From an uncultured Gammaproteobacteria bacterium (GTDB lineage Bacteria > Pseudomonadota > Gammaproteobacteria > Steroidobacterales > Steroidobacteraceae), in assembly GCA_963802645.1 (NCBI GenBank), contig CAWDJK010000004.1, forward strand, positions 351,343 to 415,342: a stretch of 64,000 nucleotides of DNA. Direction: 5' to 3'. A program made the position numbers and the translations under genes. Shown here one piece after another: positions 20,034 to 22,562 of this stretch. The notes beneath the pieces are model-generated. The model had not been told where the DNA came from. It was given only the letters and a program-made list of their open reading frames with translations, and ran no database searches. Position 1 is the first letter of the stretch; every line of letters starts with the position of its first letter.

Positions 20034-22562
20034 TCAGCCCACCGCGCCTTCCAGGCTCACCGCGAGGAGCCTGGAGGCCTCGACGGCGAACTCCATCGGC
20101 AGCTCCTTGAACACCGACTTGCAGAAGCCACTCACGATGAGGTTGACCGCGTCCTCCTGGGAGATCCCGCGGGCCAGACAGTAAAACAGCTGGTCGTCGC
20201 TGATCTTCGAGGTACTTGCCTCGTGTTCCACGGTCGCTGTCGGGTTCTTTACCTCGACGTACGGGAAGGTGTGCGCACCGCACTTGCCGCCCATCAGCAG
20301 CGAGTCGCACTGGGTGAAATTACGCGCGCCGTGGGCGCTCGGCAGCATCTTGACGAGCCCGCGGTAGGTGTTCTGGCCGTGGCCGGCGGAGATGCCCTTG
20401 GAAATGATGGTGCTGCGCGTGCGCGGTCCTATATGGATCATCTTGGTGCCGGTATCGGCCTGCTGGTGGTTGTTCACGGTTGCGACCGAGTAGAACTCGC
20501 CGCTCGAGCCCTCACCGCGCAGCACGCAGCTCGGGTACTTCCAGGTGATCGCCGAGCCGGTCTCGACCTGCGTCCAGGAGATGTGCGCATTGCGGCCGCG
20601 GCACTCGCCTCTCTTGGTGACGAAGTTGTAGATGCCGCCGCGGCCTTGCGTATCGCCGGGGTACCAGTTCTGCACGGTCGAGTACTTGATGCTGGCGTCA
20701 TCGAGCGCGATCAGCTCCACGACGGCGGCGTGCAGCTGGTTTTCATCGCGCATGGGTGCGGTGCAGTTGTGGACCGCGAAGCCCTTCACGAGATATGAAT
20801 GAGGCTCGCTCGCCGTCTGGAAGTTGTAGACGAACCCGTCGTAGGGCTCGCGGCGGATCTTGCGCACCGGGACCAGGAAGTGGTCGTAGCGGCGAATCGC
20901 GCGCCGACCGCGCGTCTTTTCCGAGTAATACAGCGTATACATCCTGCTGTGCCGGATGATTCGCCCATCCTTCATCCGCTCGTCGTTCGCCTCGCGGATA
21001 CCCATGTAGCCAAAGATCCCGCGACGCGCCAGCATCTCCTGCAGCTGGAATGCCAGTGTGCGGGACACGGTGCCGCACCGAATCATCGTCACAGGCCCAT
21101 AACGGCCGATGCTTCCGTCCCCGCGGTAGTAGGTGTGGACCGCCAGCTTCTGGCGATGCGCAGGCAGATCCATCACGGCCTTGCTGAAGCGCTTGCCGTG
21201 CGCGTACCGGCCGCCGTGCTCCTCGAGCGCGGCGCAGAGTTCGAGCGAGTACACGACGAGATAAACGCCGTGGCGCTTCCTGTCGTGCGTGCGTGACGGG
21301 CGTTTGCCCGTGCAACGCTCGACCAGCAGGGAGATCTCATCGGCCACGTCCGGCTCGTGGTCGCCCAGACTCCATTCGACGGCGTCATAGCCATTGAATT
21401 TGGTGACGCAACCTTCCGCGATGTAGTAGCCGAGGAGCTTCAGGAAATCGTCGGTGAGGGAAGGGTCGTCGCGCTCGACCTTATTGATCGGGAAGACAAG
21501 CAGATCGCCCGGCACGAGCTGGCCGGCAGGCACGAACTCAGGGTCTGCATTGTTGAGAAGCTTCTGGTTAATGTCCGGCCAGCGTCCGCAGGCCCGCAGG
21601 CTACTGCGCACCCGCTCGCGGCGGATCGCAAGTACCGGATGCTCCGGAGTTACGTGGAAACGGTTGGCCGCGCTGCGCGGCGTGATCTCGACCATGTCGC
21701 CGCGGTACCGGCGACGCATGATCTTCGCGACCTCGGCCTCCTCCCCGCGATCATTCAGAACCACATCGTGCAAAGCGACGTCACGCACGCAGCGCATCTC
21801 GTCCCCGTATGAGACTTCCTCCCAGGCGGGCAGGCACCCCTCGAGGTAACTGACATAGGCGCCGTCGTCGGCGATGATGAGGGTCCGCTCGAACTGTCCG
21901 GTCTTCGCGGCATTGATGCGGAAATAGGTCGACAGCTCCATCGGGCAGCGCACGCCCTTCGGCACGTAGACGAAGGAGCCGTCGGAGAACACCGCGGAGT
22001 TGAGTGTCGCAAAGAAATTGTCGGTGTACGGGACCACGCTCCCGAGGTACTGCTCGATGAGCTCAGGGTGGCTGCGCACCGCCTCCGAGAACGGCGCGAA
22101 CACGACGCCCGCGGCCGCGAGCCGCTCCCTGAAAGTGGTGGCGACCGAGACTGAATCGAACACCGCATCCACGGCGACGCCCGCGAGGCGCGCTCGCTCG
22201 TGCAGCGGCACGCCGAGCTTCTCGTAGGTCTCGAGGAGCTTCGGGTCCACCTCGGCGAGGCTCTTGGGGCCGTCCTTCTTCGTCCTGGGGGCCGAGTAGT
22301 ACGAGATCGCCTGGTAGTCGATGGGCGCGAAGCGTACGTGCGCCCAGTGCGGCTCCTTCATGGTGAGCCAGTGACGCAGCGCCTTTAGGCGCCATTCGGT
22401 GAGGAAGGCCGGCTCGCCCTTCTTGCGCGAGATGAGCCGCACCACGTCCTCATCGAGTCCCGGAGCCACGGTGTCGGAGTCGATCTCGGTGACGAAGCCG
22501 TGCTGGTAGCCGCGGCCGACGAGGCTCTCGAGCTCTTTGGCGGTTTCGCTCATCGCGCTCAC
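20034..22562 (-). CDS. sufB: Fe-S cluster assembly scaffold SufB, interrupted in frame by a 357-aa intein
   Basis: 842-aa ORF. Residues 1-242 and 600-842 together give a contiguous 485-aa SufB (...GAYVSYLEG / CTAPMRDENQLHAAVVEL...). See the mobile_element entry. Confidence 0.9.
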   Translation of the reverse strand: MSAMSETAKELESLVGRGYQHGFVTEIDSDTVAPGLDEDVVRLISRKKGEPAFLTEWRLKALRHWLTMKEPHWAHVRFAPIDYQAISYYSAPRTKKDGPKSLAEVDPKLLETYEKLGVPLHERARLAGVAVDAVFDSVSVATTFRERLAAAGVVFAPFSEAVRSHPELIEQYLGSVVPYTDNFFATLNSAVFSDGSFVYVPKGVRCPMELSTYFRINAAKTGQFERTLIIADDGAYVSYLEGCLPAWEEVSYGDEMRCVRDVALHDVVLNDRGEEAEVAKIMRRRYRGDMVEITPRSAANRFHVTPEHPVLAIRRERVRSSLRACGRWPDINQKLLNNADPEFVPAGQLVPGDLLVFPINKVERDDPSLTDDFLKLLGYYIAEGCVTKFNGYDAVEWSLGDHEPDVADEISLLVERCTGKRPSRTHDRKRHGVYLVVYSLELCAALEEHGGRYAHGKRFSKAVMDLPAHRQKLAVHTYYRGDGSIGRYGPVTMIRCGTVSRTLAFQLQEMLARRGIFGYMGIREANDERMKDGRIIRHSRMYTLYYSEKTRGRRAIRRYDHFLVPVRKIRREPYDGFVYNFQTASEPHSYLVKGFAVHNCTAPMRDENQLHAAVVELIALDDASIKYSTVQNWYPGDTQGRGGIYNFVTKRGECRGRNAHISWTQVETGSAITWKYPSCVLRGEGSSGEFYSVATVNNHQQADTGTKMIHIGPRTRSTIISKGISAGHGQNTYRGLVKMLPSAHGARNFTQCDSLLMGGKCGAHTFPYVEVKNPTATVEHEASTSKISDDQLFYCLARGISQEDAVNLIVSGFCKSVFKELPMEFAVEASRLLAVSLEGAVG
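20766..21836 (-). mobile_element. SufB intein with LAGLIDADG homing endonuclease domain
   Basis: Begins with Cys (CLPAWEEVSYGD). Has block B TxxH (VTPEHPVL), two dodecapeptide motifs (LKLLGYYIAEGCV; HTYYRGDGSIG) and a block F-like DGFVYNFQT. Ends GFAVHN and is followed by Cys+1. Exactly 1071 nt, in frame. Confidence 0.85.

Follow-up and report, generated by a model that had tools for sequence, protein, structure and literature searches.

A predicted SufB intein of the Mycobacterium tuberculosis family, with a LAGLIDADG endonuclease domain, in the SUF operon of an uncultured gammaproteobacterium

The interrupted sufB gene and its insert

The DNA examined here, referred to as the window, is a stretch of 64,000 nucleotides from contig CAWDJK010000004.1 (positions 351,343 to 415,342 of the forward strand; assembly GCA_963802645.1) of an uncultured soil member of the Steroidobacteraceae (Gammaproteobacteria). 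Its minus strand carries a SUF operon, the sufB gene of which is interrupted in frame by an insert of 357 residues (Table 1). This insert is very probably a true class 1 intein that carries a LAGLIDADG homing endonuclease of the two-motif type, belonging to the family, and occupying the site, of the SufB (Pps1) intein of Mycobacterium tuberculosis (Mtu).

The longest open reading frame of sufB spans 20034..22562 on the minus strand and encodes 842 residues from a GTG at 22562. A first-pass annotation of the window had reported this frame together with the in-frame insert at 20766-21836, and the minus-strand translation is indeed open throughout; a plus-strand reading of the same interval was rejected, its translation being full of stops, which places the gene on the minus strand. 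The GTG at 22562 sits within a Shine-Dalgarno-like sequence, AGGTGA, and an ATG (22553) is located 9 nucleotides downstream. Because AGGTGA precedes this ATG and homologues begin with MSETAKEL, the ATG is probably the real start codon, giving a precursor of 839 rather than 842 residues. Of the extein lengths proposed earlier, i.e., 242 and 243 residues, that of the C-extein stands, while the N-extein is probably 239 residues long given the start at 22553.

Pfam searches placed SUFBD_core in two stretches that flank the insert, and SufBD_N upstream of it. When the 357 residues are removed, the resulting product (485 residues if counted from the GTG) aligns with Escherichia coli SufB (5AWF_A; E 3.5e-204) and shows no gap where the two exteins meet, in agreement with the earlier claim that deletion of the insert restores an uninterrupted SufB. 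The insertion point lies between Gly253 and Cys254 in E. coli SufB numbering, so that the -1 Gly of the N-extein corresponds to Gly253 and Cys+1 to Cys254, the latter being the sulfur acceptor that is essential for sulfur transfer in E. coli (PMC5571166).

Table 1. Features of the sufB locus and its surroundings; positions are those of the window, and cells are left empty where nothing applies.
Feature	Position	Strand	Evidence or remark
sufB precursor gene, from the probable ATG start	20034..22553	minus	NCBIfam SufB equivalog, 874 bits, 2 stretches; start-codon analysis
sufB stop codon	20034-20036	minus	
N-extein of SufB, 239 residues from ATG, ends ...GAYVSYLEG	21837..22553	minus	alignment to E. 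coli SufB
C-extein of SufB, 243 residues, starts at Cys+1 (20763-20765)	20037..20765	minus	alignment to E. coli SufB
Predicted intein, 357 residues, Cys1 to Asn357	20766..21836	minus	translation, profiles, HMMER search, fold, Mtu-type alignment
N-terminal splicing (HINT) part, residues 1-120	21477..21836	minus	residues kept in 40/40 relatives
Cys1	21834-21836	minus	
Block B VTPEHPVL, residues 62-69, Thr63 and His66	21630-21653	minus	
LAGLIDADG homing endonuclease domain, ~residues 121-300	20937..21476	minus	PF14528, PI-PkoII alignment, folds
LAGLIDADG motif 1 LKLLGYYIAEGCV, residues 132-144, Glu141	21405-21443	minus	
LAGLIDADG motif 2 HTYYRGDGSIG, residues 234-244, Asp240	21105-21137	minus	
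C-terminal splicing part, residues 301-357	20766..20936	minus	
Block F DGFVYNFQT, residues 333-341, Asn338	20814-20840	minus	
Block G GFAVHN, residues 352-357, His356 and Asn357	20766-20783	minus	
SUF operon, entire	15370-23038	minus	
Rrf2-family SUF regulator, upstream gene of the operon	22565..23038	minus	TIGR02944, 145 bits
Rest of SUF operon	15370..20032	minus	open reading frames, profiles
sufC	19268-20032	minus	
sufD, frameshifted	~17944-19261	minus	
sufS	16685 to ~17950	minus	
sufU	16236-16685	minus	
sufT	15681-16232	minus	
Rieske ferredoxin	15370-15735	minus	
kbl-like gene	11669-12890		split
mlaF	24324-25118		frameshifted
mlaE	25131-25892		frameshifted
mlaD	25912-26422		frameshifted
tRNA-Ser(GGA)	33955-34046		
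Bacterial small signal recognition particle RNA	34099-34196		
Transfer-messenger RNA	49116-49468		tag ANDDNYALAA

The insert translates as CLPAWEEV...GFAVHN and is followed by the Cys+1 of CTAPMRDENQ. Its nucleophiles are of the class 1 type, i.e., cysteines at positions 1 and +1, block B reads T63-P-E-H66 (TxxH) and block G ends in H356-N357, while two LAGLIDADG motifs, LLGYYIAE141G and TYYRGD240G, each present an acidic residue followed by Gly and both align with the corresponding motifs of PI-PkoII. All motifs quoted in the first-pass annotation in support of a class 1 intein were found where it had placed them. Its assignment of a two-motif LAGLIDADG endonuclease is likewise upheld, both by a match to LAGLIDADG_3 (PF14528) in two stretches inside the insert (E 2.9e-10; 40.7 bits against a cut-off of 22.5) and by the predicted fold. 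An AlphaFold2 model built from a 52-sequence alignment (mean predicted local distance difference test score 94.4; predicted template modelling score 0.91) returned full-length intein endonucleases as the best PDB folds in a Foldseek search, namely TliVMA (7QSU; E 3.8e-18), PI-SceI (1VDE), PI-PkoII (2CW7) and PI-PfuI (1DQ3), and the central domain, which has the alpha-beta-beta-alpha-beta-beta-alpha fold, matched I-DmoI (a free-standing LAGLIDADG enzyme), I-Tsp061I and the endonuclease domain of PI-SceI. In these four full-length structures, as in the model, a monomeric LAGLIDADG endonuclease with two motifs interrupts the HINT domain (Foldseek E 3.8e-18 to 1e-13; template modelling scores 0.6-0.7), and PI-PkoII also matches the window intein in sequence (E 2.7e-5). 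They differ in their hosts (V-ATPase, DNA polymerase and ribonucleotide reductase) and are only 11-18% identical to the window intein, which at 357 residues is more compact than PI-SceI and PI-PkoII.

Conservation among relatives follows the same pattern. C1, T63, H66, N338, H356, N357 and C+1 are invariant in all 40 species-level relatives, none of which contains a stop codon; Asp240 is likewise kept in 40/40, and Glu141 in 37/40. All 40 copies measure 356-369 residues, and a mini-intein was not found among them.

Some of the evidence on the splicing domain speaks against the assignment. The profile check proposed for the insert succeeded for its LAGLIDADG part and fell short for its splicing part, since PF14890 (21.8 bits; cut-off 35.8), TIGR01445 (13.9-14.9 bits; cut-off 24.5) and TIGR01443 (13-14.6 bits; cut-off 15.6) all scored below their cut-offs. 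In addition, the Asp expected at position 4 of block F is replaced by Asn338 (VYNFQT), which is invariant in the clade. Because the three profiles remained below their cut-offs, membership was established through the fold, the invariant residues and the homology to the Mtu intein detailed below. The Asn also occurs at this position in the Mtu-type SufB intein of P0385 (VYNLDV), and is to be regarded as a family trait rather than a disqualifying one, because the Mtu-type intein that bears it splices (PMC8891592).

Kinship with the mycobacterial SufB intein and distribution of the family

A word-indexed homologue search returned no mycobacterial protein, whereas an exhaustive HMMER search, which covered 1.84 billion representatives and gave 3,918 hits, did. 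The hits of the latter include many SufB proteins of 808-846 residues with an intein at ...HY[IV]EG/C...HN/CTAP (a slash marks the junction of extein and intein, here and below), among them P0122, which shares 99% identity with a protein listed as SufB [Mycobacterium sp.], and P0385, whose cluster is named as the M. tuberculosis intein-containing SufB. The window intein, residues 1-357, matches residues 253-611 of P0385 over its entire length (31% identity; E 4e-47). The published Mtu SufB comprises an N-extein of 252 residues, an intein of 359 residues, Gly-1, Cys612 as the +1 residue and His67 in block B (PMC8891592). As the boundaries of P0385 equal those published for Mtu SufB, the window intein is homologous to that of Mtu and occupies precisely its site, which sharpens the earlier suggestion of the same or a nearby site.

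The window intein thus resembles that of Mtu Rv1461 (Pps1) in its host protein and site (...[HS]Y[VL]EG/C[TS]AP...), in Cys1, the block B His (His67 in Mtu, His66 in the window), the block F Asn, the final His-Asn and Cys+1, and in a near-equal length (359 and 357 residues) that includes a full LAGLIDADG domain. However, the two inteins are only about 31-34% identical, and neighbour-joining placed the window intein in a gammaproteobacterial clade beside Chloroflexi-type SufB inteins, not in the actinobacterial clade. Unlike that of Mtu, the host SufB is of the E. coli type, and the regulator of the window operon is an Rrf2 protein, not SufR. Furthermore, the -5 residue is Ser in the window rather than the His that has been reported to aid N-cleavage in Mtu (PMC8891592). 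Archaeal SufB inteins from Thermoplasmatota (Ferroplasma and relatives; P0048, P0052, P0074 and P0080) belong to the same family and occupy the same site (...HYVEG/C...VKGFAVHN/C[TS]AP...; 36-47% identity), but reside in archaeal host SufB proteins, in which the extein after the insertion reads CTAPTYS... instead of CTAPMRDENQ; a Ferroplasma SufB intein has been mentioned previously (PMC8891592). A number of SufB proteins carry two to three inteins, i.e., P0087 (1260 residues), P0089, P0093, P0103 (1004 residues) and P0392 from M. shinjukuense (1223 residues). Their additional sites reach beyond the Gly-Cys junction described here, as in P0103, where a mini-intein is located at ...AAQYE/C...VHN/SEVVYH, and P0087, with an intein after ...DANIG/C.

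Inteins of the window type were identified in sufB of 44 species-level GTDB genomes, always in frame at YLEG/C...HN/C[TS]AP, at 356-369 residues and 54-84% identity. The carriers are nearly all soil-derived and belong to uncultured Steroidobacteraceae or unclassified Gammaproteobacteria. The only cultured carrier found is Methylothermus subterraneus, whose SufB (P0514; GAB6068091.1; 833 residues) is annotated as "intein-containing SufB" and contains an intein 61% identical to that of the window; its LAGLIDADG motif 2 is altered and shortened (DTYYRVGQDGNLVR as compared to HTYYRGDGSIGRYGPVTMIR), and its endonuclease may be decaying. A few carrier contigs are labelled otherwise, namely L030, L034 and L036 (Thermoplasmata, Methanomassiliicoccales and Methanobacteriota), L020/L042 (Latescibacterota) and L023 (Thermoanaerobaculia). 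These encode a bacterial-type sufB-sufC pair (exteins 62-79% and inteins 54-67% identical to those of the window) outside a neighbourhood of Rrf2, aldolase and Mla genes, and represent either mis-binned contigs or a spread of the intein-bearing gene well beyond the Gammaproteobacteria.

A literature search returned no description of a SufB intein from a proteobacterium. The first-pass annotation, which knew of none in a gammaproteobacterial suf operon, is therefore correct with regard to the literature, although such inteins are common in the databases and partly annotated there. The window element is a sound, fairly ordinary addition, in a new host lineage, to a known SufB intein family. In public records, sufB genes with an intein are frequently called as truncated or split genes or given a wrong name (P0001, P0005, P0008, P0015, P0021, P0049 and many others), the names given including 'SufD family', 'LAGLIDADG family homing endonuclease' and 'hypothetical protein', and several long-read assemblies are frameshifted within the intein.

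Presence and absence, selection and the insertion site

The survey of related genomes for intein-less sufB alleles, as had been suggested, yielded them in abundance. Among the 120 SufB clusters nearest to the window exteins (at least 88% identity), 17 contain the intein and 103 are intein-less. The carriers fall into five separate runs when the exteins are placed on a neighbour-joining tree, and Fitch parsimony requires at least 10 changes. The nearest plus/minus SufB pairs are 96-98% identical, with the insert precisely absent from the minus alleles, and the intein-less loci L045 and L047, both from soil metagenomes, share the gene order of the window (Mla genes, class I aldolase, Rrf2 regulator, sufB and sufC).

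These alleles also bear on the question of whether the insert is an intein at all. It might instead be a lineage-specific domain that stays part of SufB after maturation, or have arisen through misassembly of a noisy contig, as the many frameshifts in the window and the sub-threshold splicing profiles could be taken to indicate. Against this, more than 40 independent assemblies contain the same insertion in frame, its splicing residues are all invariant, its fold combines HINT and LAGLIDADG domains, splicing has been shown for a homologous intein, and near-identical alleles lack precisely the insert. We consider both versions of this explanation exceedingly improbable, and they were rejected on the strength of the independent assemblies and the precise natural intein-less alleles.

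With respect to selection, the ratio of nonsynonymous to synonymous substitution rates (Nei-Gojobori) is 0.08-0.21 for the intein and 0.08-0.20 for the endonuclease domain, no higher than for the splicing parts, while synonymous divergence of the intein is approximately twice that of the exteins. Two intein lineages that are ~60% identical occur in hosts whose exteins are ~90% identical.

Nucleotide differences within 60 nucleotides on either side of the insertion site were compared with the number expected. They cluster near the site in two independent pairs of close plus and minus alleles, with 15 of 44 differences between L048 and L047 (expected 3.6; P 1e-6) and 23 of 99 between the window and L045 (expected 8.2; P 5e-6). 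For the plus/plus pairs, which lack such clustering, the corresponding values are 5/77 for window and L046 (expected 6.4; P 0.77) and 22/210 for window and L048 (expected 17.4; P 0.15), and for the minus/minus pair L045 and L047 they are 25/214 (expected 17.7; P 0.05). Ala-Tyr at positions -7/-6 is present in 17/17 close carriers as against 37/103 non-carriers (Fisher 2.5e-7, uncorrected for phylogeny). The site differences and the Ala-Tyr bias would be expected from co-conversion of the flanks during homing, and equally from resistant target variants among the intein-less alleles. The fused-extein site of the window allele reads ...GCCTATGTCAGTTACCTCGAGGGG/TGCACCGCACCCATG..., and the natural intein-less sites read ...AGCCAGGTGTCATATCTTGAAGGC/TGCAGTGCACCG... 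in L045 and ...GCGTCGGTAAGCTATTTGGAAGGC/TGTACTGCCCCA... in L047. A recognition sequence of the endonuclease was sought in the synonymous flanking codons and none could be derived, because the intein-plus alleles vary freely at the flanking third positions.

Taken together, presence and absence, divergence at the site and selection on the endonuclease fit a selfish mobile element in a homing cycle, and the endonuclease is probably active or recently so. A number of results weigh against this reading. The clustering of differences stems in part from positions -8 to -6, which are variable in general, as the minus/minus pair (P 0.05) also indicates. Identity of the intein rises with that of the exteins (Spearman 0.54), and a search for recent transfer, i.e., intein identity in excess of extein identity, found it in one of 780 pairs; inheritance therefore looks largely vertical, and no very recent transfer between lineages is claimed. 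Glu141 is lost in three of the 40 relatives and motif 2 is altered in M. subterraneus, so that, judging from these motifs, endonuclease decay does occur within the clade. Finally, both splicing and DNA cleavage are predicted activities.

The correlated identities, the near absence of pairs in which the intein is the more similar part, and the motif decay in some relatives would equally suit a splicing-competent but immobile relic, whose endonuclease is dead and which is kept because its imprecise loss kills an essential gene, the patchy distribution then resulting from an ancient invasion and rare precise deletions. A viral vector was also sought, and viral contigs yielded only inteins of 24-26% identity, i.e., no close relative, which again favours such a relic. 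However, both catalytic acidic residues are intact in the window copy, as they are in 37/40 and 40/40 relatives, and a dead domain should drift or shrink towards a mini-intein, whereas the endonuclease domain is constrained to the same degree as the splicing domain and all 40 copies are full-size. Precise deletion moreover leaves the clustering of differences between plus and minus alleles unexplained, and an immobile relic is therefore judged unlikely.

The intein might also have been domesticated as a conditional-splicing switch, in which splicing would be blocked whenever Cys1 and Cys+1 are oxidised, nitrosylated or bound by metal, and SufB maturation and with it iron-sulfur (Fe-S) assembly would become responsive to redox state, as has been proposed for Mtu. 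The window intein shares the family, the site and the Cys1/Cys+1 pair of the Mtu intein, which H2O2 and nitric oxide donors reportedly inhibit via a Cys1-Cys+1 disulfide, leaving a precursor that cannot bind SufC and SufD (PMC8529194), and Cys+1 doubles as the sulfur-acceptor cysteine (PMC5571166). Strong purifying selection on an intein that is intact in 40 species would be consistent with such a role. Yet 103 of the 120 nearest SufB clusters are devoid of the intein, including relatives of 96-98% identity with the same operon layout, and the host lineage therefore does not need it. Switch inteins tend to lose their endonuclease, and purifying selection on the endonuclease domain is predicted by a mobile element, not by a pure switch; redox sensitivity, for its part, is generic to any Cys1/Cys+1 intein. 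A domesticated switch, which would be argued by analogy with Mtu, appears decidedly improbable, so that the first-pass annotation went too far in its suggestion of redox-conditional SufB maturation, and a mobile element in a homing cycle remains the preferred reading of the window intein.

Sister inteins, operon context and proposed splicing and homing

Full-length homologues of the window intein (33-41% identical) also interrupt archaeal IscU/NifU_N-like scaffold proteins (P0027-P0073), for example P0057 (MCK4364900.1) of a Thermoplasmatales archaeon. The insertion site is FKTFG/C...VKGFAVHN/C[GAT]AAIATSS, and the spliced archaeal IscU aligns without gaps with Archaeoglobus fulgidus IscU (4EB5_C); a literature search found no paper on IscU inteins. 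In Candidatus Aenigmarchaeota, the beta subunit of 2-oxoacid:ferredoxin oxidoreductase (P0094 and P0113) is interrupted by an intein of 37-39% identity at VSGIG/C...HN/CGSKTPHF, where the +1 Cys corresponds to Cys46 of the beta subunit of the S. tokodaii enzyme (5B46_B), and the same clusters also contain intein-less versions of 283-285 residues. The inteins of IscU and of the oxidoreductase resemble that of the window in their ends (CLPxxEEV ... SYLVKGFAVHN/C) and in their position after a Gly and before a conserved Cys, but their hosts are unrelated to SufB, and in the neighbour-joining tree they form the sister clade of all SufB inteins. The 'TFGC' cysteine of IscU is presumably a cluster ligand, and we take Cys46 of the S. 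tokodaii subunit to be a ligand of its [4Fe-4S] cluster. It is conceivable, though on present evidence quite unlikely, that one intein clade colonised three unrelated proteins of Fe-S metabolism, each time before a sulfur-handling or cluster-binding Cys, beyond the usual preference for Gly-Cys. If true, either the endonuclease transposes repeatedly between Gly-Cys sites, or selection favours redox-gated maturation across the Fe-S network, the latter of which would parallel the clustering of inteins in the replisome.

In the SUF operon of the window, SufB is of the E. coli type and the Rrf2 SUF regulator (TIGR02944) of the Xanthomonas type. The operon further encodes SufS, SufU (TIGR01994) in place of SufE, a long SufT (TIGR03406) and a Rieske-type ferredoxin; its sulfur donor is SufS with SufU, not SufE. 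Frameshifts were called where reference proteins from syntenic loci matched in at least two reading frames. By this measure sufD contains one frameshift, mlaF approximately two, mlaE three and mlaD one, and the kbl-like gene is also split, which gives at least seven frameshifts in ~9 kb around sufB, while sufB itself, sufC, the aldolase gene and the gene for the Rrf2 regulator are intact. Because essential genes are affected, the frameshifts are most likely assembly or sequencing noise, though real pseudogenes are conceivable. The first-pass annotation had pointed out that the element is fully open among neighbours with indels; the neighbours are indeed frameshifted, but at about one indel per kb an intact stretch of 2.5 kb has a chance of ~0.08-0.2, which makes its openness weak evidence, and the pattern of indels is more suggestive of noise in the assembly than of preservation by selection. 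The RNA genes of the window (Table 1) are ordinary housekeeping genes.

A scheme of splicing and homing can be proposed from these data. The ~839-residue precursor would be translated, upon which Cys1 would undergo an N-S acyl shift aided by Thr63 and His66, and attack by Cys+1 would generate a branched intermediate. Cyclisation of Asn357, with His356, would then free the intein, and ligation of the exteins would give a functional SufB of 482 residues. That the precursor splices is predicted because the catalytic set is complete and invariant (40/40) and a homologous intein has been shown to splice, and splicing should be obligatory for SufB function; in M. tuberculosis, as noted above, the unspliced precursor does not bind its partner proteins (PMC8529194). 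The freed 40-kDa intein, or its endonuclease domain, would cut intein-less sufB at the fused-extein site, and repair from the intein-plus copy would insert the intein along with some flanking extein sequence; such homing may be ongoing.

Work on SufB inteins, as putative stress sensors and as drug targets, has been confined almost entirely to mycobacteria. In soil Gammaproteobacteria of the Steroidobacteraceae, inteins of the Mtu SufB family are common at the same catalytic cysteine as in Mtu, and the split or misnamed gene calls to which they give rise can cause SUF to appear incomplete in metagenome-assembled genomes. The window intein leaves existing knowledge of inteins unchanged. Its main value lies in a natural plus/minus system, in which both sufB alleles coexist in near-identical hosts with an identical operon layout, offering a natural comparison that bears on whether SufB inteins benefit their hosts or are selfish, and on the target of their endonuclease.

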